Positions 15,722-64,000 of a DNA stretch of 64,000 bases are shown one piece after another (within the stretch, counting starts at the first letter, position 1; the number at the start of each line of letters is the position of its first letter). The notes beneath the pieces are model-generated. The model did no database searches. It was not told where the DNA came from and saw only the letters and a list, made by a program, of their open reading frames with translations. The stretch is from NCBI GenBank assembly GCA_020137815.1, contig CM035359.1, positions 124,001-188,000 of the forward strand. Direction: 5' to 3'. The translations under genes and the position numbers were made by a program. Source of the DNA: Hormiphora californensis. Lineage: Eukaryota; Animalia; Ctenophora.

Positions 15722-17299
15722 TAAAAAAATTTCTCCCCCAAAAAAAAAAAAAAAAGGGGTTCCCAAAGGGGGGTTTTTTAATTTTTTAAAAGGGGGGGTT
15801 TTTTTTTTTGGGGGGAAAATTTTTTTTTTTCCCCTTTTTTAACTTTTTTCCCCCCCCAAAAAAAAAAATTTTTCTCTTTTTTTGAAAAATTTTTTTTTTT
15901 TTGGGGGGCCCCCCCAAAAAAAAAAAGGGAAACCCCCCTTTTTTTTTTTTTTAAAAAAACCCCCAAAACCCCCCCGGGGGGAAAAAACCCAAATTTTTCC
16001 CCTTTTTTTGGTTTGGTTTTTTTAAAGGGTTTTTTAAAAAAAAACCCTTTTTTTTTAAAAAAAAAAACTTTTCCCCAAAAAAAAAAAAAAAAGCCCCCCC
16101 CCAAAAAGTACAAAAGGGGGGAAAAAAGTTAAAATCATTTTTTTTTTCCCCGGGGGCCCCTTGGTTTTCCTGGGTTTTTTTTCCAAAATTTTCCTTCCCC
16201 TTTTTTTTTCCGGGGGGGTTTTTTTTTGTCTTTTCTTTTTTAAAAATTTTCCTTTTCCCAAAAACCAAAAAAAAAAAACCCCTTTTTGGGAAATTTGGGG
16301 GGGGGCCCCAAAAAAAAAAAAAAAAAAAATTTTTTTTTTTTTAAAAAAAAAAAAAAAAACCCCCGGGGGGGTTTTTTAAAAAAAAAACCCCCAAAAAGAA
16401 ACCCCCCAAAAGGGGGGAAAAACTTTTCCCCCCTTTTTTAAAAAAACGGGGGTTTTTTTTTTTTTTTTTTTCCCCGGGGGAAAATTTTTTTGGGGGGGGG
16501 GAAAAGGGGGGTTTTGGGGGGGGGGAAAAAAGGGGGGTTTTTTTTTTTTTGGGGGGAAAAAAAAGGGGGGGGAAAAAAGGGGTCAGTGATGTTGGGGGGG
16601 GGAAAACCCGGGGGGAAAAAAGGGGGGGGGTTTTTGGGGGGAAAAAAGGGGGGGGGGGGGGGGGTTTTTTTTGGGGGGGAAAAACCCGGGGGAAAAAAGG
16701 GGGGGTTTGGTTGGGCCCCAAAAAAAGGGGGGGGGGGGGGGGAAACCCCCGGGGGGAAGGGGGGGGGGAAAGGGGGGGGTTTTTTTTTTGGGGGGAAAAA
16801 AAAAAATTTTTTTTTGGGGGAAAAAAAGGGGAAAAAGGGGAAAAAAAAAAAGGGGGGAAGGGGAAAAAAGGGGGGGGGGGGGAAAAGGGGGGAAAAAAAA
16901 GGGGGTTTTTGGGGGGGGGGGAAAAAAAAGGGGGAGAAGGGGGGGGGGGGGAAGGGGAAAAGGGGGGGGGGGGGGGGGGGGGAAAAGGGGGGGGGGGGAA
17001 AGGGGTTTGGGGGGGGGAAAAAAAAAGGGGGAAAAATTTAAAAAGGGAAAAAAGGGGGGGGGGGGGGAAAATTTTGGGGGGGGAAATGGGGGAAAAAAAG
17101 GGGGGGGTTTTTTTTTGGGGGGGGGGGGGGGAAAGGGGGGGGGGGGGGGTTAAAAAAAAAAGGGTTTTTTTTTTTTTTTTCCCCCCCCCCCTTTTTTTTT
17201 TTTTCCCCCCCCTAAACCCGGGGCCCCCCCCCTTTTTTTTCCCCCCGGGGGGGGGTTTTAAAAAACCCGGGAAAAAAAAAAAAGGGGGGGGGGGGAAAA

Positions 17300-17330
<31 letters not shown>

Positions 17331-17633
17331 TATTTGGGGGAAAAAAAATTTTTGGGGGGGGGGGGGGGTTTTTTTTTTTTTTTTTTTTGGGGGGGGGGGG
17401 GGCCCCAAAAAAAAAGGGGGGGGGGGTTAAAAACCCCCCCCCTTTAAAAAAACCCCCCCTTTTTTTTTTCCCCAAAATGAAAAAAAAAGGGTTTTTTTTA
17501 AAAAAAAAAAAAAAAAAAATTTTTAAAAAAAACCCCCCCGGGGGGGAAAAAACCCGGGGGGGTTAAAAAACCCCCCCGGGGGGGGAAAAAAAAGGGGGGG
17601 GGGGAAAAAAGGGGGGGGGTAAAAAAAAAACCC

Positions 17634-17706
<73 letters not shown>

Positions 17707-22504: not shown

Positions 22505-23023
22505 CTAAAACAGCTGGCTAACATGGACAGTTGTTGTGAGTGGATTAAAATTGAAAGTTGAAACTTTTAATGTTCAGCATCACCAAAATCCAAATAAACA
22601 TTTATACGCGAATTGATACATCAACAACATATAAAAGGATGTAGGCCGTAGCAGACTAAATTTCGTTATTCTACCCTACAATTCAACTGTTCAAACCGCT
22701 GGTCGGCCATAGGAGCCGATAGCGTCGGAGGTTGGCCGGTGGCGGGTGACCACAGCAGCAAAATAGTTCCCAATATACACAAGGTAAGATCAATTTAAAT
22801 AGAGCACATGATAAGCAGATTTATTAATTTCATGAAGCAAAACTCACGAGGACGCTGAAAGCCCGCTGCCCGGGTGGGAACCTTTTGACTTTTTCATATA
22901 ATATCCAAAGCAAATTATCATGCGCGGCGCGGTTGGACCGAAGCGCGCAACTGCCTTTTGGCAGCGTAAAAGCGTTAAGTTCGCCGGCTCTCAACGAGTT
23001 TTGCAGGTGACAGCTTCAAAAAC

Positions 23024-23343
23024 ATGAGACGAGTACAGATTGTAGAGGGCGGGACCTTCTCTCCACTGGTGTTTACAACAACAGGTGGTGTTGGCCCAGA
23101 AATGGACAGGGCGATGAAGAAGACAGCCAGACACATCGAGGACAAGCACGGAGAGATGTACAGCGAGGCGTTGGCAGCTATCAGAAGGAGGCTGAGATTC
23201 TGCTTACTAATCGCAACCTTGAGATCTCTGAGGGGGTGTCGAACAAAATACACCCCAGTAGGACTTGGTAGCATTGACTTCAATATCTGATTCGTGTGTA
23301 AGATTTATTGTTTATTCGAGTGAGTGATTTTAATATTTATTAC
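23024..23343 (+). mobile_element. 3' fragment of a CRE-like non-LTR retrotransposon (C-terminus of restriction-like endonuclease region plus 3' UTR)
   Basis: ORF 23024-23290 RVQIVEGGTFSPLVFTTTGGVG...RRRLRFCLLIATLRSLRG fits the C-terminal motif of CRE-clade elements as I recall it; no RT upstream. Confidence 0.7.
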
Positions 23344-23493
23344 TAACCCCAACACCGGGGGCAAATGATCGATTGATCGAACCCAATGTGAATGAGACTC
23401 ATCGCGATTAACTCTTCATACGGTTACCCCCTTTCTCTCTTCGGCAGCTTCTCTTCGGCTGTTGGAAAGTGATGCCAATCGGTGTTGGGGTTA
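23344..23493. mobile_element. 150-bp MITE-like element, 14-bp inverted ends
   Basis: taaccccaacaccg ... cggtgttggggtta, wedged between the 3' ends of two converging LINEs. Confidence 0.6.
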
Positions 23494-23620
23494 AATTCAA
23501 ATTCAAATTCAAATTCATAAATTTGCGTAACACACAGGATATTTAAAAAGATAAACCTCCTAAAAAGAGTCAATACTCAGTACACTTACAGCACAGCGAC
23601 ACATAACACACTAACACGCA

Positions 23621-26600
23621 TCATGGACACCACTCTAGTATTGAGTTGCTGTTTGCTTGAGCAGGATAACCGCTGATGGGGGGTGTATCCGGAATGGTAG
23701 AGAGGAAACTACCTAGCTGAGATTTGAACTGATAAAGAGTTGGGGCCTCCTTTACAGATCGAGGCAAAGTGTTCCACAACCTTGCCCCCAGTACCGCAAA
23801 TGATTGTTCATATAGCGACAAGATAGATCGTTGAGCCTCGTACGAGTATCGAGGGACGACAGCTCTAGGGCCAGAGCGGTGACTGTCGACGAAACACATG
23901 TCAGTACTGTTGGGTATCTCATTGTTGTACACTTTCCACACAAGAATCATAGTGTACCTCTCTCGTCGGCGCTGAAGCGACAAAAGTCCCAGGGTTTGAA
24001 GACGTTGCCAGTAGTTCAGCCCCTTGAGACCAACGATCTTACGGGTGTAAGATCGTTGAATATCCTCAACACGACTGATATCCCCATTTTTGGAAGGTGA
24101 CCACAGTGTGCAACAGTAGTCAAGATGGGGACGCACCAGTGACTTGTAAAGAGTCATCATGGTGCGGCGAGTTCTGGATCTAAATGCACTTAACGTCCAT
24201 CCAGCAACCCGACTAGCCGTGGTAACAACTCGAGATATTTGGGCCGACCATTGACCATCACTCGAGAGTAGAACACCTAAGTCTCGGACAGTGTCTGTTG
24301 GATCGATGAACCTCCCATCAGACAGTTGATAGGAATAGTTCTCAGCACTGAACGGTACTTCTCTAAGCGAACTGGTGTGATTCAGGGTGAAATTCATGAC
24401 CTCGAACTTTGACTGGTGCAAGGACATATTGTTAGCGTCAGCCCAGGTTATCACACTGTTCAGATCCTCCTGTAGGTTCAATTTTTCAACCATAGTACGG
24501 ATAGCAGAGAAGATTTTAGTGTCATCAGCGAACGACAAAGAAGAACCGTGTTTGATTACGGATTCCAGGTCAATTACATAAATCAGAAATAAAAGTGGAC
24601 CGAGAACAGTCCCTTGTGGGACCCCACTTCTGACTTCTGCAAAAGAAGACGCTACGCCGTCGACTAAGACCGTTTGTTTCCGGTCTAGTAGGAAGCTGCG
24701 GATCCATTCAAGGAGTTTGCCCTTAACTCCATATCTCTGCAGCTTTTCGAGAAGTATACCGATGTCAACTTTATCAAACGCCTTCTCGAAGTCCAAGTAG
24801 ATTACATCCACTTCAAGAAGGTCGTTGAGATTGTTCAGAATATTGTCAATGTGACGAGTGAGTTGGGATAAGCAGCTCCTCTTGCTTCTAAACCCATGCT
24901 GAGACTCGTTAAACAAGTTCTCTGATTCAAAGTATGACACCATTTGAGATCTTACAACCCGTTCAAATGTCTTGGCAATGTGACTGGTGAGGGAGATCGG
25001 GCGGTAATTTTCAGCTTTCATTTTAGGACCCTTTTTGTAGAGGGGTGCAATGTACTGAAGTTTCAGACAGGGTGGTACAATGCCAGAATCAAACGATTTG
25101 GCCCATAAGATGGATAGGGGGTAGGACAGCGATGATCGGCAGTCACGTAAAATTCTGGCAGGTACATCTCCTGGAGGGCCGGCTGAATAGGGATTGAGGT
25201 CATGTAGTGCCTTTTCAATATCAGCGGTGGAGAAAACGATGTCTGAAAGGCTGCATGTAGAAGGAGTAATGTTGTCTGCAGCTGCTGAAGGGGAGTTTGA
25301 AGGAGTGCTGAAAGACAGAGGTAAATTGTGATTGAAATAGTTCTGCCTTCATCTCGGGAACGTCCGTAAGTGACCCATCACTTTTCTGTAAAGGAGGTAT
25401 ACGTGACCGGGTCTTCCTCTTTCGGTTGGCGTATGACCAGAAGAATTTTGGGTTAGCTTTGAGTTTTATCAACGCCTCGTTTTCATCAGAATCAAGTCGC
25501 TGAGAAATGTGACACAAGATGGCCCAAGTAATTCTGGAAACACCAACCTCTAGCTGTGGCAAAAGGTGAGGTTTATTCTGCCGGGCAAGAGTAATCCGTT
25601 TATTCAAACTCCGCTGTTTCACTTTCAATTTCCTGAGAATAGGGTCCCTTCTTTTTTTACGGGCCTTCTTCTTACGAGAGTGGTGAGATAAGACCTGTAG
25701 AACAGTCAGGGTGAAAAGTTGAACGAAATCAGAACCATCACCGTCATCGCAGATGTCGGCGAGTGCTATCCAGTCGATCTGGTCCAACTCCCTACACATT
25801 TCAGGGAAGTTAGCCTCGTGAAAGTTGTAAATATCAAAGTCTGTGAATCGATGGTCTGATTGACGAGTGGGTAAGATACCAAACCCAAGTGTAGAGCTGA
25901 TCATATTATGGTCAGAAATACACGACTCCGATACCTCAGTTTTGAAGACATAGTCTGGCCGGTTGGTGAGAACGAGGTCTAGAATATTCAAGCCCCGTGT
26001 TGGAGAGTCAACAAGCTGAGTGAGAAAATATGAGTTCACAAATTTTAGTAGCATCTGTGAGCTAGGTCCTCCAGTGAGTGTCCCCCAGTCTATGTCTGGC
26101 ATATTGAAGTCGCCCATGACATAGATGTCAGGACAACCCTTGTCGAGTTCGCACTGATCAATGAAACGGGATAGATCATCAAAAAGATCATTCGCAGGGG
26201 AAGATGGCGCCCTGTACACAACACAGAAAACCGAGTGAGTCTCCTTGATGTATACAGCAGCCGCACTATTGGACGTGTCTGAGAATCTGAACTCAGAGGA
26301 AGGGGTCAGTTGATTGTTAATGTAGAGTGCACAACCGCCACCTCTTCTACCCGCTCTGTCACAACGAGTTAGGTGAAAGCCTTCAATCTCCAATTGGGCA
26401 TCAGAGAAATCATCATGCCACCAGGTCTCCGTAATACCGGTGCAAAGGATGGGTATTGACGGATTCTCCAGTGAGTCCTTGATAAAAGAAAACTTCCACC
26501 GACAGTCACTAGCCGCGGAAGGCGTTAAACTGCGGGCGTTGATGAGGAGTAATTCCGAAACCGTTCCAGAACCCCTTGGTAGTTGGTCGGGGTGTTCAGG

Positions 26601-26765
26601 CCTGGTTGTGTGAGTGTCAGATGTTTGGGCCGGGGTGTGTGTTCCCTCGTCATCTCTTCCCTGAAGGACTGTAGAGATGAGTTCAGTGACGTCTTTACTT
26701 CTCGAAGAATCTCGTCCCTCACTGAGGCCATCAATGCCATGAGAAAATCCTCTTGTGAACGGATG
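23621..26765 (-). CDS. LINE ORF2: AP endonuclease + reverse transcriptase; one +1 frameshift at ~25312
   Basis: Motifs LINARSL, ITETW, VYRAP, GDFN, LDLV, SDHN, NYRPISLTS, LDFEKAFD, GVPQGTVLGP, FADD. Removing one base near 25312 joins ORFs 25221-26393 and 23621-25021 (TSVF-STPSNSP...PLYKKGPKMKAENYRP). Confidence 0.93.
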
Positions 26766-27931
26766 TCATTGGTCGCGGCACGGGGATCGGTCTCAGTTTT
26801 GTTAATCTTCTTCTTCTTCTTCTTCTTTGGGTTTGGAGGAGCTGAGCGAGGGGTCTCTTTCTGCTCCACTTTCTGAGGGACACCACTGGTTTTGTTACCA
26901 GCAGTCTTCAATGAATTACCCTTGGTAGGGGCTACTTCACTTCTCCGAGTGTTCTTTAAATGTGTGTCTTTACATTCTTTGTCGGTACAGACTCGGGAGA
27001 TCTCAGACTTATGGCAGAGAGGTGGGTGAAAATCCTGGCACTGGTCACCATAGTTACACCCAGAACGAGTTGCCGTTCCGAACTGACAATAACGGAGGCA
27101 TCTCTGAGGATGTTCCTTGCTGCAAGGCTTACCACTGATCAACTTGTCACCATTTGGGCCATGGGGACAGTCTCTCAGTAGATAACGTTCACAAACATTG
27201 CTGAATTTAGGAACACCTTGGGGTTTCACCTCTCCATCAGAAGATATGTCTCCAAGATCCACATCTTTTAGAACTGTCACTCCACCAACAGGAGTTACCA
27301 GATCATCAGGATCTTTCTTGACAGGAGCTTGTTTCTTCTTCCTCTTCTTCTTACCGCTACGGCCTGCCTTCGGACTGATTTTGAACTCGTATTCCTCATC
27401 AGATAACACTGATTCTGGATCTTCAGCACTTCGGTTGCACATGAAGGTTTCAATTTTGTTGTTTTTGTCCTTGCACGGCAGACACAACCAGACCGACCCC
27501 GTCAATGACCCAAGGGTGCCATCCATAGCCTCGCAATCATGAGACCCCTGCTGGCAAAGAAAACAGCGGACACGAGGAGATTCACCTGGTTTAACTGCAT
27601 ACCCTTCGCCACAGCCCTCACAGTCACAAGGAAAATGACTTTCCAGCTGAATGATGATGTAGTCGGCTAGTGTAGTGCGGTTCTGGTACCGCTTAGTTTT
27701 ATCTGCATGTGAGCCGGGGGATGCACCGAAAAACGATGCAGCGGCTTCCAGGTGAGCACAGTTGAATGTGCGGATGATGTCTAGATTCTTGGTGTAATCC
27801 ACATCATGGCGGTAGGCAGACAGGATCTTTTTGGTAAGGGGATCTGCTGCGTTTACAAGATTTCCAACGGCAAGGGCATTACCATCACTTTTGTCATCAG
27901 TAGGTGTAGCCATATTTGTCATATCTGGCAT
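26525..27931 (-). CDS. LINE ORF1 (468 aa): PHD-like finger, three CCCH-type fingers, two poly-Lys tracts
   Basis: CEGC...CFLC...HDC...WLCLPC; CERYLLRDC...CSKEH, CLRYC...CNYGDQCQDFH, CHKSEISRVCTDKECKDTH. Confidence 0.88.
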   Translation of the reverse strand: MPDMTNMATPTDDKSDGNALAVGNLVNAADPLTKKILSAYRHDVDYTKNLDIIRTFNCAHLEAAASFFGASPGSHADKTKRYQNRTTLADYIIIQLESHFPCDCEGCGEGYAVKPGESPRVRCFLCQQGSHDCEAMDGTLGSLTGSVWLCLPCKDKNNKIETFMCNRSAEDPESVLSDEEYEFKISPKAGRSGKKKRKKKQAPVKKDPDDLVTPVGGVTVLKDVDLGDISSDGEVKPQGVPKFSNVCERYLLRDCPHGPNGDKLISGKPCSKEHPQRCLRYCQFGTATRSGCNYGDQCQDFHPPLCHKSEISRVCTDKECKDTHLKNTRRSEVAPTKGNSLKTAGNKTSGVPQKVEQKETPRSAPPNPKKKKKKKINKTETDPRAATNDIRSQEDFLMALMASVRDEILREVKTSLNSSLQSFREEMTREHTPRPKHLTLTQPGLNTPTNYQGVLERFRNYSSSTPAV

Positions 27932-27955
27932 GGCTAGAGCCTACAGAGGGATATT

Positions 27956-27996
27956 CTCAAATTAATTTGTTTAAAGTAGTGTTGAAAAGTTTGAAA
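27956..27996 (-). other. Ctenophore spliced-leader (SL) exon sequence joined to the LINE 5' UTR
   Basis: Minus strand reads TTTCAAACTTTTCAACACTACTTTAAACAAATTAATTTGAG, matching the ctenophore SL as I recall it. It is followed by AATATC (not GT) and lies 24 nt before the ORF1 ATG. Confidence 0.88.
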
Positions 27997-28099
27997 TTAA
28001 GAAGAAAAAAAAAGAAAAGAGGAAAAAAAAAGAAAAAAAAAAGTGAGCAGAGAGAGAGGGAGTATGAGAGTATGACGGTGTGTGGGTAATTTATTATAA

Positions 28100-28775
28100 T
28101 ATATACCCTGCTAACTTAAATAATGCGCCAGTGGCGAGAAGTCCCACTAGCGCGCTCTCAGTAAACAGCCAGTCCAGCGGCAGATTATTTCCCACTGGCA
28201 GGTTATTTATTTTTAACTCCTACGTAACATTCAAAGTGTGTGTAAATGATCAGTTCTTACTAAAATACAGAGGGAACACTATGTGCAACACTTACACACT
28301 ACATTGGAGAGAAAGAAAGGACACATTCCGTCAATTACTCTCTCTTTATCTCCCCTTTTGTCTCACTATCTCTTTCTCTGTGTTATTTGTGACATGCCCC
28401 TTATCAGGCTATTTCTTTCACTCTCTTTCCTTAGCAACTGCTTAGTAACTGTTACCAAACAGTGTACACTCAATTGTGACGTGTTTTTAACTATTTCTCA
28501 GTTCTCTTTGTGTGTTTTGATTAGTGTTCTCTCTCTTGTTGGTGTGTAATACTTGAAATAAACAACTAAAGCAGGGTATATAACCCATAAACTCTGACCA
28601 CTGGCACGTTATAGGTTTAAACCCCTCCGCCTCTCCCTCGGCTCCGCCTCGGGATCGTCGTCGTGATTTAAACCAGTTTATCCGCCAGCGGCGGATAAAC
28701 TCCAGCTAACTTCTCCCAGCGGCGCGCTGGGAGAAAGTTATCTGAAATAACGCGCCAGTGGCCAGAGTTTATGCC
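28100..28775. repeat. Composite inverted-repeat element(s)
   Basis: tatataccctgct (~28100) / agcagggtatata (~28570); cataaactctgaccactggcacgttat (~28586) / ataacgcgccagtggccagagtttatg (~28747). Confidence 0.55.
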
Positions 28776-46278: not shown

Positions 46279-49122
<2,844 letters not shown>

Positions 49123-56800: not shown

Positions 56801-59576
56801 AACATGTCTCAAAGATATGACATTGACTCCACCTTATCCCAACATGTCTCAAAGATATGACATTGACTCCACCTTACCCCACCATGTCTCGAAGATATGA
56901 CATTGACTCCACCTTCTTATCCCACCATGTCTCAAAGATATGACATTGACTCCACCTTACCCCACTATGTCTCGAAGATATGACATTGACTCCACCTTAC
57001 CCCACCATGTCTCAAAGATATGACATTGACTCCACCTTATCCTACCATGTCTCAAAGATATGACATTGACTCCACCTTACCCCAACATGTCGCGAAGATA
57101 TGACATTGACTCCACCTTACCCCACCATGTCTCAAAGATATGACATTGACTCCACCTTACCCCACCATGTCTCAAAGATATGACATTGACTCCACCTTAC
57201 CCCACCATGTCTCGAAGATATGACATTGACTCCACCTTACCCCACCATGTCTCAAAGATATGACATTGACTCCACCTTATCCCACTATGTCTCAAAGATA
57301 TGACATTGACTCCACCTTACCCCACTATGTCTCGAAGATATGACATTGACTCCACCTTACCCCACTATGTCTCAAAGATATGACATTAATGACACAGTGT
57401 CGCGCTTCGTCAGCAGACGTTTTCAATGTTCATAGTGTCCGATTGTCCGAAATCGGTCACAAGCTGAAATCTAGACAAACTTTTCTAATTCTCTTCCTTT
57501 ACATTCTGCTGTCTCTTTCTCTTTCTTGTTACAAGGTCACGTGATTAGATGTGGAACATCTCGACATGATAACAACGTCTAGTGTCACCGATTCGCTCTC
57601 TCTATCTGCTGAGTATAACTCTCTCGTCATGACGAAGAAGATGTGACTCTCTTCCTTTCTCTCTATTTCTGTGGCTATTATATCTCTTTCTCTCTCTCCC
57701 TCTCTTTCTCTTGTCATGACGAAGCGCCACGCTCTACCACACTCAGCACCACAGCTAGTCACGTGACCCTGTCAACGATTTCAGACACCATGATCACGTC
57801 TACTGACGAAGCGCCACACTTTGCCACACTCAGAACCAATTACAGAATCGGTGTAACACATTGCTTGGGGCTGATTACCCCCAGTAAGACACGTGATACG
57901 TGATACCTGAGTGCAAAAATGCTCCCAATTAGGCCGACCTACACCACTTTGCCGTGTTCCTGCGAAGGAACTAAAAAAGATATCGCCAAACCAAGCAGCC
58001 AAAAGTTAGTAAATTATCTAATCAACATATTGTGAAAGTTTGAGCTCTCTACCTCATCAGGTTGCAGAGATCTGAGCGCTCAAAGTTAGAGGAGGTTTTT
58101 GGGCTAAAGCTTCATTCAGGAACGACCGATTTTACTGAAATTCGAGTACAATAAATGGCAGGTAGCCATCTACCTTGTCCTAAAATTTCAGAGCAAAATA
58201 TTCACAACTTTTGACGCTATGTCGATTTGAACAGTCTCAGTCATTTAAAAACACACAGTATCTCGTTCATAATATCCTACAATTGCAATTTAGTATTTAC
58301 CCTTTGCGACCATGCACTCGCTGAGACGGCGTGATAACCATACCGCTGCTTTCTCAATCTTCTCCTTTTCTTCCGACTCAGACTCCACTTTTTTGCTATC
58401 CATACACATCAACTTGCCTGTGAGGAGTGCAGGGTTATCAGGAGCTCTCTGTTTGATCAAGGGGAGTGGTTATCAGGAGATGTCTGTCGGGTACCGATCA
58501 TATAAAATTTATAAGAAATATCAGAGAATCTGAACGTGGCCAGCGCCGCCCGACATGTCAATTATGACAGGTATGCCAGACTAAACTGGGTCGAGATTGT
58601 CAGACACTGACTGTACATCGCGCAACCTCGGCCCGGTGCGAAGAGGACGGTCTTATATGAGACAAGGTCGAGATATAGGAGCTGAGGATTGGTGACATTG
58701 GCACACGTGCAGAGAGTTCGAACTGTATGCCTCTTCTTCCTGGGTACCATTGCCACCTATTCGTGCAGTGTGAGAGTTTTTCACACACGAAGCGAGAATA
58801 GGTGGCAATGGTACCAGGGAAGATGATCGCCGCAGGAACCGACCGAAACAAGTAAACAACCAATCAGAACTCGTTATTTAGGTCACGTGATTGGTTATCA
58901 GCCAATCAGGGACCAGTATTTCCTGATTCGGTCGGTTCCTGAGGATCGGGCATACAAAGTTTTCAATAATAAACTATGCGGCCCATACTTATACTTGACA
59001 GCTCAAGACTAAAGTCTTGCAAGGCCTTGTGTATTATCTCAGCTATGTACAGTCTGGCGCCGCCGATCCAATCTGAGCGCACTGTCGAGAATTTGAGAAT
59101 CAAATCGAGGCCTGGCGCCGCTACACAGGCTAAGTAAGTACAAATTACTTCAATCCGTGATCGTCTGGATCATAATAGTCTGGAGATGTCAAGTAAGACA
59201 GCTTTAAACGATATAATTTATCTTCCTCCAAATTTGCGTTTCAATCTATTTGAACGTCACTGGTTAAGTTAGGTTGGGTCGGCACCGCCAGACACTGTCT
59301 GAGACTGTCAGTTGGTAATGAAATTATCCCTCCGGCCTCCACGCGAGCGCCCCAGTTACCAAGAGTAAGACTGTCAGAGCATTGACCTGACAGGTCTGAG
59401 ACAGATCACGAGCGAAAATACATGAAAACACTTACAGATGGGCTTGATTTCCCCAATGGGCGAGCTCTTATAGATCAGGTAGGGCAGCCAATAGAGAAAG
59501 GCCATGAGGAAGAAATAGAAGGGAATCCATTGGTACCAGAGGAGGTACACTTTAGTAACGTTCGGGTAGAGACCAT
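53867..59576 (-). CDS. Innexin (gap-junction protein), 3' eight exons: 59576-59436, 58417-58301, 56554-56448, 56174-56105, 55862-55770, 54574-54443, 54255-54181, 54012-53867; 5' exons lie beyond the window
   Basis: In-phase GT-AG joins give KVYLLWYQWIPFYF...LPYLIYK (innexin YQW signature/TM2), TM3 LVFVVITNKFLNLVL, FLTYGSDW, LFPKMVSCEVKMWGTTG...GLCVLAPNVVNSYFFLIFWF (EL2/TM4), and tail ASNTPPRVFE...DKGMK*. Confidence 0.92.
55468..55611. repeat. 24-bp minisatellite (gtgggggacatgatcagtgtcaat) x6, innexin intron
   Basis: Direct tandem copies. Confidence 0.92.
56743..57388. repeat. 40-bp minisatellite (actccaccttaccccaccatgtctcaaagatatgacattg), ~16 copies, innexin intron
   Basis: Period 40 read directly. 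Confidence 0.95.
58833..58941. mobile_element. 109-bp MITE with CAGGAACCGACCGAA TIRs (partial copies ~44677-44746, ~51320-51403)
   Basis: caggaaccgaccgaa...ttcggtcggttcctg; three copies in the window; resembles an abundant Pleurobrachia repeat as I recall it. Confidence 0.8.
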
Positions 59577-62500
59577 CTGGTACTATACCAGGGTAGGGTA
59601 CCTATAGTAGGGAGGTACACTTTAGTTGGGGTAGAGACCATCTGGTACTATACCAGGGTAGGGTACCTATAGTAGGGAGGTACACTTTAGTTAGGGTAGA
59701 GACCATCTGGTACTATACCAGGGTAGGGTACCTGTAGTAGGGAGGTACACTTTAGTTAGGGTAGAGACCATCTGGTACTATACCAGGGTAGGGTACCTGT
59801 AGTAGGGAGGTACACTTTAGTTAGGGTAGAGACCATCTGGTACTATACCAGGGTAGGGTACCTGTAGTAGGGAGGTACACTTTAGTTAGGGTAGAGACCA
59901 TCTGGTACTATACCAGGGTAGGGTACCTGTAGTAGGGAGGTACACTTTAGTTAGGGTAGAGACCATCTGGTACTATACCAGGGTAGGGTACCTATAGTAG
60001 GGAGGTACACTTTAGTTAGGGTAGAGACCATCTGGTACTATACCAGGGTAGGGTACCTATAGTAGGGAGGTACACTTTAGTTAGGGTAGAGACCATCTGG
60101 TACTATACCAGGGTAGGGTACCTGTAGTAGGGAGGTACACTTTAGTTAGGGTAGAGACCATCTGGTACTATACCAGGGTAGGGTACCTGTAGTAGGGAGG
60201 TACACTTTAGTTAGGGTAGAGACCATCTGGTACTATACCAGGGTAGGGTACCTGTAGTAGGGAGGTACACTTTAGTTAGGGTAGAGACCATCTGGTACTA
60301 TACCAGGGTAGGGTACCTATAGTAGGGAGGTACACTTTAGTTAGGGTAGAGACCATCTGGTACTATACCAGGGTAGGGTACCTGTAGTAGGGAGGTACAC
60401 TTTAGTTAGGGTAGAGACCATCTGGTACTATACCAGAGGTAGGGTACCTGTAGTAGGGAGGTACACTTTAGTTAGGGTAGAGACCATCTGGTACTATACC
60501 AGGGTAGGGTACCTGTAGTAGGGAGGTACACTTTAGTTAGGGTAGAGACCATCTGGTACTATACCAGGGTAGGGTACCTATAGTAGGGAGGTACACTTTA
60601 GTTAGGGTAGAGACCATCTGGTACTATACCAGGGTAGGGTACCTGTAGTAGGGAGGTACACTTTAGTTAGGGTAGAGACCATCTGGTACTATACCAGGGT
60701 AGGGTACCTATAGTAGGGAGGTACACTTTAGTTAGGGTAGAGACCATCTGGTACTATACCAGGGTAGGGTACCTATAGTAGGGAGGTACACTTTAGTTAG
60801 GGTAGAGACCATCTGGTACTATACCAGGGTAGGGTACCTATAGTAGGGAGGTACACTTTAGTTAGGGTAGAGACCATCTGGTACTATACCAGGGTAGGGT
60901 ACCTGTAGTAGGGAGGTACACTTTAGTTAGGGTAGAGACCATCTGGTACTATACCAGGGTAGGGTACCTGTAGTAGTAGGGAGGTACACTTTAGTTAGGG
61001 TAGAGACCATCTGGTACTATACCAGGGTAGGGTACCTGTAGTAGGGAGGTACACTTTAGTTAGGGTAGAGACCATCTGGTACTATACCAGGGTAGGGTAC
61101 CTATAGTAGGGAGGTACACTTTAGTTAGGGTAGAGACCATCTGGTACTATACCAGGGTAGGGTACCTGTAGTAGGGAGGTACACTTTAGTTAGGGTAGAG
61201 ACCATCTGGTACTATACCAGGGTAGGGTACCTAGTAGTAGGGAGGTACACTTTAGTTAGGGTAGAGACCATCTGGTACTATACCAGGGTAGGGTACCTGT
61301 AGTAGTAGGGAGGTACACTTTAGTTAGGGTAGAGACCATCTGGTACTATACCAGGGTAGGGTACCTGTAGTAGGGAGGTACACTTTAGTTAGGGTAGAGA
61401 CCATCTGGTACTATACCAGGGTAGGGTACCTGTAGTAGGGAGGTACACTTTAGTTAGGGTAGAGACCATCTGGTACTATACCAGGGTAGGGTACCTGTAG
61501 TAGGGAGGTACACTTTAGTTAGGGTAGAGACCATCTGGTACTATACCAGGGTAGGGTACCTGTAGTAGTAGGGAGGTACACTTTAGTTAGGGTAGAGACC
61601 ATCTGGTACTATACCAGGGTAGGGTACCTGTAGTAGGGAGGTACACTTTAGTTAGGGTAGAGACCATCTGGTACTATACCAGGGTAGGGTACCTGTAGTA
61701 GGGAGGTACACTTTAGTTAGGGTAGAGACCATCTGGTACTATACCAGGGTAGGGTACCTGTAGTAGGGAGGTACACTTTAGTTAGGGTAGAGACCATCTG
61801 GTACTATACCAGGGTAGGGTACCTGTAGTAGGGAGGTACACTTTAGTTAGGGTAGAGACCATCTGGTACTATACCAGGGTAGGGTACCTGTAGTAGGGAG
61901 GTACACTTTAGTTAGGGTAGAGACCATCTGGTACTATACCAGGGTAGGGTACCTGTAGTAGGGAGGTACACTTTAGTTAGGGTAGAGACCATCTGGTACT
62001 ATACCAGGGTAGGGTACCTATAGTAGGGAGGTACACTTTAGTTAGGGTAGAGACCATCTGGTACTATACCAGGGTAGGGTACCTGTAGTAGGGAGGTACA
62101 CTTTAGTTAGGGTAGAGACCATCTGGTACTATACCAGGGTAGGGTACCTGTAGTAGTAGGGAGGTACACTTTAGTTAGGGTAGAGACCATCTGGTACTAT
62201 ACCAGGGTAGGGTACCTGTAGTAGGGAGGTACACTTTAGTTAGGGTAGAGACCATCTGGTACTATACCAGGGTAGGGTACCTGTAGTAGGGAGGTACACT
62301 TTAGTTAGGGTAGAGACCATCTGGTACTATACCAGGGTAGGGTACCTGTAGTAGGGAGGTACACTTTAGTTAGGGTAGAGACCATCTGGTACTATACCAG
62401 GGTAGGGTACCTGTAGTAGGGAGGTACACTTTAGTTAGGGTAGAGACCATCTGGTACTATACCAGGGTAGGGTACCTGTAGTAGGGAGGTACACTTTAGT

Positions 62501-64000
62501 TAGGGTAGAGACCATCTGGTACTATACCAGGGTAGGGTACCTGTAGTAGGGAGGTACACTTTAGTTAGGGTAGAGACCATCTGGTACTATACCAGGGTAG
62601 GGTACCTGTAGTAGGGAGGTACACTTTAGTTAGGGTAGAGACCATCTGGTACTATACCAGGGTAGGGTACCTGTAGTAGGGAGGTACACTTTAGTTAGGG
62701 TAGAGACCATCTGGTACTATACCAGGGTAGGGTACCTGTAGTAGGGAGGTACACTTTAGTTAGGGTAGAGACCATCTGGTACTATACCAGGGTAGGGTAC
62801 CTATAGTAGGGAGGTACACTTTAGTTAGGGTAGAGACCATCTGGTACTATACCAGGGTAGGGTACCTGTAGTAGGGAGGTACACTTTAGTTAGGGTAGAG
62901 ACCATCTGGTACTATACCAGGGTAGGGTACCTGTAGTAGTAGGGAGGTACACTTTAGTTAGGGTAGAGACCATCTGGTACTATACCAGGGTAGGGTACCT
63001 GTAGTAGGGAGGTACACTTTAGTTAGGGTAGAGACCATCTGGTACTATACCAGGGTAGGGTACCTGTAGTAGTAGGGAGGTACACTTTAGTTAGGGTAGA
63101 GACCATCTGGTACTATACCAGGGTAGGGTACCTGTAGTAGGGAGGTACACTTTAGTTAGGGTAGAGACCATCTGGTACTATACCAGGGTAGGGTACCTAT
63201 AGTAGGGAGGTACACTTTAGTTAGGGTAGAGACCATCTGGTACTATACCAGGGTAGGGTACCTGTAGTAGGGAGGTACACTTTAGTTAGGGTAGAGACCA
63301 TCTGGTACTATACCAGGGTAGGGTACCTGTAGTAGGGAGGTACACTTTAGTTAGGGTAGAGACCATCTGGTACTATACCAGGGTAGGGTACCTATAGTAG
63401 GGAGGTACACTTTAGTTAGGGTAGAGACCATCTGGTACTATACCAGGGTAGGGTACCTATAGTAGGGAGGTACACTTTAGTTAGGGTAGAGACCATCTGG
63501 TACTATACCAGGGTAGGGTACCTGTAGTAGGGAGGTACACTTTAGTTAGGGTAGAGACCATCTGGTACTATACCAGGGTAGGGTACCTATAGTAGGGAGG
63601 TACACTTTAGTTAGGGTAGAGACCATCTGGTACTATACCAGGGTAGGGTACCTATAGTAGGGAGGTACACTTTAGTTAGGGTAGAGACCATCTGGTACTA
63701 TACCAGGGTAGGGTACCTGTAGTAGGGAGGTACACTTTAGTTAGGGTAGAGACCATCTGGTACTATACCAGGGTAGGGTACCTGTAGTAGGGAGGTACAC
63801 TTTAGTTAGGGTAGAGACCATCTGGTACTATACCAGGGTAGGGTACCTGTAGTAGGGAGGTACACTTTAGTTAGGGTAGAGACCATCTGGTACTATACCA
63901 GGGTAGGGTACCTATAGTAGGGAGGTACACTTTAGTTAGGGTAGAGACCATCTGGTACTATACCAGGGTAGGGTACCTGTACGGAGGGAGGTACACTTTA
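59542..64000. repeat. 65-bp satellite array, ~68 copies, continuing beyond the window; derived from an innexin intron-exon junction
   Basis: Unit gaggtacactttagttagggtagagaccatctggtactataccagggtagggtacct(g/a)tagtagg; occasional +tag variants. Confidence 0.97.

Follow-up and report, generated by a model that had tools for sequence, protein, structure and literature searches.

Every LINE must regenerate its own 5' end in each round of retrotransposition, and two solutions are known, a promoter inside the element and a self-cleaving ribozyme. A different association, with the spliced leader (SL) of the host, is found in SLACS, CZAR, CRE1/2 and NeSL-1, which are RLE elements that insert into SL RNA genes, with leader sequence adjoining the element. 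Leader sequence has also been found on retrotransposons of flatworms. Six loci with the leader merged to retrotransposons were described in Schistosoma mansoni (Boroni et al. 2018, PMC5832876), and 597 SL-bearing retrotransposon loci, with partial leaders, have been listed for 24 flatworm species (Calvelo et al. 2025, PMC12582326). In dinoflagellates, trans-spliced mRNAs are recycled together with their leader and re-spliced at the relict AG (PMC3229502, PMC5585692, PMC3942190; Slamovits and Keeling 2008 as cited therein), and in Hydra about 30% of the Iso-Seq reads of transposable elements carry the leader (PMC12220107). The ctenophore Hormiphora californensis carries its SL on 56% of Iso-Seq reads, and 718 genomic copies of the leader in Hormiphora and 491 in Mnemiopsis were reported as dispersed, with no explanation in the available text of that paper (PMC8527503).

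Here we describe a LINE that begins with the host SL, located in a stretch of 64,000 nucleotides of H. californensis DNA that is referred to below as the window. LINE copies that start with the host SL are a real feature of ctenophores; they are family-wide and occur in more than one lineage.

The element and its insertion site

The 5' end of the LINE lies on the minus strand at 27996-27956, where 41 of 41 nt are identical to nt 4-44 of the published 44-nt H. californensis SL (PMC8527503, in the part of its text available). The same 41-mer also matches, again at 41/41, the SL RNA gene in a metagenome locus (L068); the number of copies expected in the window by chance was computed as 5e-19. The 41-mer is the ctenophore SL, as the initial annotation of this DNA had proposed, present as a DNA copy that does not include the first bases of the leader. 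It is followed by a 5' UTR of 24 nt (27932-27955, minus strand), with a YAG ending at 27941, and by the ORF1 ATG at 27931; these features had been described before and agree with the letters. The locus is not an SL RNA gene, another point on which the earlier reading proved sound, since the leader is followed on the minus strand by AA and not by a GT donor, in contrast to the true gene in L068, which has GTAAG. The 41-mer is 78% A+T and contains one AG and no GT. The claim that the only AG of the leader is its last dinucleotide is therefore right for the 41-mer and wrong for the full 44-nt leader, which has a second AG at its 5' start both in the published sequence and in the L068 gene. An Rfam search of the window gave no match, and the leader pattern had no matches in viral contigs.

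The element is 4.5 kb long and CR1-like, a label based on its RT motifs, its tail and a PHD-like Cys/His pattern. A TTAA duplication borders it, one copy (27997-28000, minus strand) adjoining the leader and the identical other copy (23491-23494, minus strand) adjoining the 3' tail at the very end of a MITE; 4 bp are weak evidence as a 4-mer alone, yet the pair stands at both exact ends. All coding features are on the minus strand. ORF1 (26525-27931) is intact and encodes 468 aa, and its end is overlapped in another frame by the start of ORF2, of which the 5' part (25221-26618) encodes an AP endonuclease, or APE (Pfam PF14529, E 1e-11; PF03372, E 7e-11), and the 3' part (23621-25345) a reverse transcriptase (RVT_1, E 2.7e-30). 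The 3' UTR (23495-23620) ends in a hexamer microsatellite tail of 4.2 copies (23493-23517). Two ORFs, the second with APE and RT, along with a simple-repeat tail and a target duplication, are the features of an APE-type LINE; in the Atlas comparison, the RT of ORF2 groups with generic RVT_1 clusters only. A single frame change near 25.3 kb means that ORF2 is not intact. The description of the copy as full-length thus holds for its two ends, both with TTAA, and has to be qualified for the frameshifted ORF2 and for 21 nt of the family UTR that this copy lacks (see below).

Seven homologues of ORF1, with identities of 48-81%, share a conserved Cys/His pattern resembling a PHD finger plus three CCCH-type fingers, with 21 invariant C/H/W positions. 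No Pfam or PDB profile matched the domains of ORF1, zf-CCCH appearing only below the cut-off and in homologues, and none of 600 pattern matches of ORF1 to metagenome contigs was confirmed. At 27836-27860, the main family contig of one public sequencing run (X1) is without 18 nt of the window ORF1, and two other runs (X3 and X5) have the window-like form; by this 18-nt difference, LINE subfamilies differ among individuals.

The LINE was inserted at the end of a MITE (23344-23493; 12-bp inverted ends, TA duplication), next to which lies the 3' fragment of an older single-ORF RT element (23006-23343, plus strand) consisting of the last 94 codons and the 3' UTR. This fragment shares 89% identity with the C-terminal end of the 958-aa protein P0022 (RVT_1, E 3e-10), and we take the element to be of CRE/RLE type, the CRE label being based on its motifs. 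In-silico removal of the LINE and the MITE joins the 3' UTR of the older element to an A-rich run on the plus strand at 28000-28042, which is likely the degenerate poly(A) tail of that RLE-type element; the likely order of insertions, judged from this nested structure, is older element, MITE, LINE. The clean rejoining of the nested flank supports the 5' junction of the LINE as a true insertion boundary, and with the 3' UTR thereby reunited with its likely tail, the pyrimidine tract that the minus strand shows at 28042-27999, outside the target duplication, is an accidental flank.

This bears on a proposal in the initial annotation, which had seen in the upstream tract a device for renewed trans-splicing. 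Its observation was correct, as there is no AG from 28107 to 27958 and the tract is U-rich: the minus-strand AG at 28109 is followed by none until 27957, and AG-free minus-strand runs of at least 150 nt are not rare, numbering 14 in the window and covering 3,762 of its 64,000 bases. A part of the tract in the mechanism is not supported, since it lies outside the target duplication and is, by the nested structure, an antisense poly(A) tail. Long AG-free flanks are, moreover, not general, since in the seven other SL-headed copies with an upstream AG in view this AG lies only 38-78 nt before the end of the SL. A host splice acceptor was likewise considered for the U-rich tract and rejected in favour of the antisense poly(A) tail, and an 8-bp match at 28096 and 23342, a candidate target duplication by which the tract would belong to the LINE, was rejected in view of the TTAA pair at the exact ends and the clean rejoining.

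Several other features were seen in the window. A high-copy MITE with 13-bp inverted ends (including the TA) occupies 28100-28582, 100 bp upstream of the leader. Downstream of the LINE and on the same strand are probable exons of a host gene (22504-22399, 22301-22247, 22059-21864 and 20107-19991), with compatible phases in two pairs; if the promoter of this gene lay beyond 28 kb, its transcript would read through the LINE. The stretch 15800-17700 is rich in homopolymers of G, A, T and C and resembles low-quality sequence, its 150-aa Gly/Lys ORF being probably spurious. At 48652-49122 (plus strand) a hydrophobic ORF of 156 aa looks by eye like the C-terminal part of a seven-transmembrane receptor, and from 59560 to 64000 there is a 65-bp satellite of 68 copies, with 98% identity, which continues past the end of the window.

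Leader-headed copies in sequencing runs and metagenome contigs

The contigs of public sequencing runs were compared with the LINE junction for 5 of 22 listed runs, and four of these entered a comparison of UTR continuations: three come from samples of organism A and the fourth from organism B, with no selection for the SL and with DNA type being a guess. The intervals 27994-28058 and 27994-28101 were masked as repeat, and the comparison covers the leader-UTR side of the junction; depth figures are sums over contigs and not copy numbers. In all four runs, a contig matches the UTR as far as 27956 or 27950 and then continues into 21 extra nt and the end of the SL. One loose end of run X1, GAAAACGCACGGGCGTGCGCCTCAAATTAA (plus strand), has as its last 10 letters the complement of the 3' end of the leader, and a loose end of 22 letters in X5 reaches the first two of those 10; the continuation from UTR to leader was also seen for X1 and X3 in a separate comparison. 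The family form consists of the leader, 21 nt with a hairpin-like GC-rich inverted repeat and then the UTR of the window copy, so that the usual UTR measures 45 nt and the window copy is without its first 21 nt. No other, non-SL continuation of the UTR was among the loose ends listed for the four runs, in which variants diverging upstream of the 21 nt would be invisible. The main SL-joined contig visibly carries about a third of the UTR depth in each run, and 19-29 contigs per run differ in the sequence after the leader. The SL head of the window LINE is a family trait and no one-off: a single template switch, the outcome that would have told against the initial annotation, is not what the four runs show.

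The shorter junction of the window copy itself, a piece of about 59 nt, was not among the contig pieces listed for the four runs, contigs being a record of presence and not of absence. Where a loss of 21 nt through splicing would need an acceptor, the family form has CG and not AG. Given this site and the junction not being among those pieces, a skip of the hairpin or an assembly error fits the loss equally well. In a further run, X22, which is RNA by guess, leader-bearing contigs are present without cover of the LINE, which is not evidence of silence.

A scan of metagenome contigs with an exact 25-nt leader pattern gave 107 stretches at 106 loci, with long flanks for about 80 of them; leader-less copies cannot be counted in this way. 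The leader extends to the contig end at 89 of the 106 loci. Two assemblies are inferred to be of DNA type because they contain no host mRNAs, have flanks and include a gene array with spacers. Outside these two, 56 of the 72 loci scanned (22 ORFs of short loci were left out) belong to ordinary host Pfam families, as expected of mRNAs, and the sequence thus heads many mRNAs that are unrelated to one another, as a spliced leader does. Within the two DNA-type assemblies, by comparison, none of the 11 SL loci is a recognisable host gene headed by the leader: one is an array of 5S and SL genes, seven are LINEs of a second lineage and three are probable retroelements. In the array (L068, 263-1513), SL RNA genes and 5S rRNA genes alternate, the tandem unit being 778 bp long.

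The LINEs of the second lineage are recognised by APE and RT (L029, L032 and L049), by ORF1 and the start of ORF2 (L020 and L066) or by the UTR and the start of ORF1 (L098 and L105). Their RT is only 25-28% identical to that of the window LINE, their ORF1 is of the CCHC type, and their UTRs, of 145-215 nt, are 38-95% identical to one another. In five of them (L020, L032, L098, L105 and L029), a conserved U-rich AG closes the UTR, a single base ahead of the start codon of ORF1, and could be used as a second trans-splice site to make a shorter mRNA. As for the three probable retroelements, L054 is related to a multi-member ctenophore family of ORF1-like proteins and ends in a hexamer repeat, and L096 and L101 share its UTR motif. 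The ORF1-like family (L054 1-1258, L009 and P0025-P0050) occurs mostly on contigs of 0.9-2 kb, with the hexamer repeat of L054 following soon after ORF1; its members may be non-autonomous elements that begin with the leader and encode ORF1 alone.

An mRNA-like assembly contains L063, in which the leader is followed by a 31%-identical homologue of the window ORF1 and then by APE. Its 351-nt flank was not counted towards read-through, since the usual contig of that assembly begins 26 nt ahead of the leader's end and the flank may therefore be chimeric. The L009 contig, from an assembly of mRNA-like type, opens with the leader, and a fresh leader and an encoded one are indistinguishable there. 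A relative of it, P0028, can be read in frame across the UTR into amino acids other than those the leader would specify, a weak hint that this copy is leader-less or nearly so; an N-terminal extension of P0018 that fits the end of the leader was too short to count. Two further element candidates, L060 and L013, were dropped as lacking similarity to transposable elements, L013 being a signal peptide peptidase. In the first 50 nt after the leader, L009, L054, L063, L096 and L101 have an upstream ORF of 1-4 codons ahead of ORF1, followed in four of the five by a short GC motif resembling a hairpin; the upstream ORF is possibly a conserved translation control.

Origin and proposed renewal of the leader

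All leader-UTR joins fall exactly at the terminal AG of the leader. At 11 element 5' ends the leader measures 43, 42, 42, 42, 41, 41, 41, 40, 38, 35 and 28 nt, with unrelated flanks beyond it, and at 8 of the 11 element loci 40-43 nt match the SL gene. The flanks of eight copies have nothing in common except one 10-nt match. Outside the search pattern, which biases 25 of the 43 nt, internal mismatches in the leader were found in none of the 11 copies. Tandem relict leaders were absent from the window and from 11 flank-bearing or DNA-type element loci, each copy having one leader. A second loose end of X1, CCGGGGGTTGTTACTTGGACATGGCT (plus strand), has the leader joined to a UTR of the L063 type without its first six nt, TTTCAG, and these missing nucleotides end in a canonical acceptor. 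The motif TTTYAG directly follows the leader at 3 of 12 element loci and at 0 of the 93 loci of host type (Fisher test applied post hoc, p 0.001). When a wider acceptor motif was allowed at up to 20 nt from the leader, the enrichment was not significant (3/12 against 6/93, p 0.07).

It is very likely that the window copy came from an SL-trans-spliced LINE RNA, as the initial annotation had inferred: the leader is present at 41/41 and at the exact boundary, it is family-wide, and it recurs in another LINE lineage. Such an RNA would have received the SL by trans-splicing and would then have been reverse-transcribed almost to the cap. The fuller reading, a full-length CR1-like LINE of this origin whose leader-headed copies are likely to be parents again, is held with moderate confidence, and we lean towards regarding the leader-headed copies as productive parents. 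With such a copy as the parent, a fresh leader would replace the old one in every round. Transcription would start upstream of the new copy, either by read-through from the flank or through signals inside the element, and promoter elements could lie in ORF1. The 41-43 nt of AU-rich leader DNA in such a transcript would serve as a minimal outron, and trans-splicing at its terminal AG would exchange it for a fresh capped SL, leaving the sequence as it was. A leader of 78% A+T whose only AG is the terminal one resembles the minimal outron reportedly defined in nematode work by Conrad et al. in 1995. Occasional use of a downstream acceptor would give a shorter UTR and would account for the loss of 21 nt here and of 6 nt in the related family. 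A cycle that is wholly promoterless, as the initial annotation had proposed on seeing no room for an internal promoter, seems doubtful on the present sequences, given also the 145-215 nt of UTR in the second lineage. Equally tentative is the generalisation that in ctenophore LINEs of several lineages the leader is a self-renewing outron, in place of a promoter or 5' end of their own, and that of the leader copies dispersed in their hundreds through ctenophore genomes, many form the heads of such elements.

The exact joins and the ever-fresh leader would be explained equally well if each family had masters equipped with a promoter and an outron, and these gave rise to leader-headed copies as mostly dead-end by-products, the lineage being kept by rarer unspliced RNAs. 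Precedents for such a division exist, at least in the parts of the reports available, in the full-length RNA of Cer1, which skips its SL1 site (PMC3315495), and in trypanosome LINEs, which keep an internal promoter and stay unspliced (PMC1874656); the hint from P0028 points the same way, and the exact-leader scan is blind to leader-less copies. The 6-nt pair could likewise come from alternative acceptors in one master, which speaks against reading it as the trace of a downstream acceptor in a re-spliced copy. We nevertheless consider masters of this kind rather unlikely, as the loose ends listed for the four runs show the UTR continuing into the SL alone, and TTTYAG directly after the leader in three divergent elements would be odd if a master used its best acceptor.

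A leader acquired once as the 5' end or promoter of the element, and copied since without further trans-splicing, would recall the proposal that leader relics act as core promoters in Symbiodinium retrogenes. This is improbable: a leader supplied fresh from host SL RNA is favoured over a single capture because the leader is free of mismatches while UTRs fall to 38% identity, and with RTs that differ by more than 70% between lineages, several captures and strict selection on each base would be required (for 25 of the 43 nt, the exact-match pattern itself favours identity). The abundance of SL-capped RNAs among Iso-Seq reads (PMC8527503, in the part available) would provide ample partners if, during reverse transcription, the element RNA were linked to SL RNA or to the leader of another mRNA, through a switch of template or through ligation, as in snRNA-LINE chimeras. 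The joins, however, coincide precisely with the AG of the splice site and recur at one position of the family UTR across individuals and copies, with no SL intron sequence or foreign UTR brought along, and this origin is highly improbable. An assembly artefact joining a leader repeat to the LINE might be suspected from the low-quality stretches of the window at 15.8-17.7 kb and from the exact window junction not being among the contig pieces listed for four runs, and chimeric assembly was raised for the Schistosoma cases (PMC5832876, in the text available). With a target duplication, a nested flank that can be rejoined, and the leader joined to LINEs in two other assemblies as well as in four runs, this explanation is most improbable, and at most the 21-nt loss would be artefactual.

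If renewal from host SL RNA is true, the trans-spliced leader of the host would be a third answer to the renewal of LINE 5' ends, and it would account for some of the dispersed leader copies, 718 in Hormiphora and 491 in Mnemiopsis. The leader would also be a ready tag for 5'-complete insertions and a warning that genomic matches to the leader are mostly not SL RNA genes. Even if leader-headed copies are by-products, the leader marks copies made from fully processed RNA. Ctenophores are well suited to a direct test, as chromosome-scale genomes and long-read cDNA exist.

Comparison with described systems

The idea that leaders and retrotransposons can be combined is already in print for flatworms, and the ctenophore case, with its signs of renewal, appears to be undescribed in the literature searched. 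That literature, outside of which lie subscription papers, Repbase and supplements, contained no account of ctenophore LINEs that begin with a leader, nor of any self-renewing cycle put to the test. The flatworm loci are alike in having a genomic leader on LINE or LTR loci, which their authors took as a sign that trans-spliced element RNA may have been integrated (PMC5832876, PMC12582326). As far as the available text goes, the leaders there are partial and the loci, which were discarded, are mentioned in passing, without analysis of junctions, families or life cycle. In the ctenophore LINEs, by contrast, a leader that is nearly complete stands precisely at the 5' boundary, with a target duplication around the element, throughout a family and in two distant lineages. 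In Hydra, the available text deals with the RNA level only and does not state whether genomic copies start with the leader (PMC12220107).

As in the recycled genes of dinoflagellates, the retrocopy in the window carries at its 5' end a leader that is encoded in the DNA. The dinoflagellate cases, in the portions of the papers available, concern host genes and tandem relics; the ctenophore case concerns an autonomous element with no tandem relic, and there was no host retrogene among the 11 DNA-type loci. CR1/L2 elements of the Jockey group (Metcalfe and Casane 2014, PMC4120745, available text) resemble the window LINE in having two ORFs, APE and RT, and a microsatellite tail; a possible further likeness lies in ORF1, which is PHD-like in the window LINE and of the CCHC type in the second lineage. 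They differ in that the 5' end of the window LINE is the host leader and not an element-specific UTR, and CCCH fingers are not mentioned in that text. The L1Tc/ingi elements of trypanosomes face the same 5'-end problem in an SL-using host and have, by the available account, found the opposite answer, an internal promoter and unspliced RNA (PMC1874656).

With respect to SLACS, CZAR, CRE and NeSL, the initial annotation had set the element apart, and the distinction stands: the window LINE has APE and not RLE, and its flanks are a MITE and an older retroelement, with no sequence of an SL gene.
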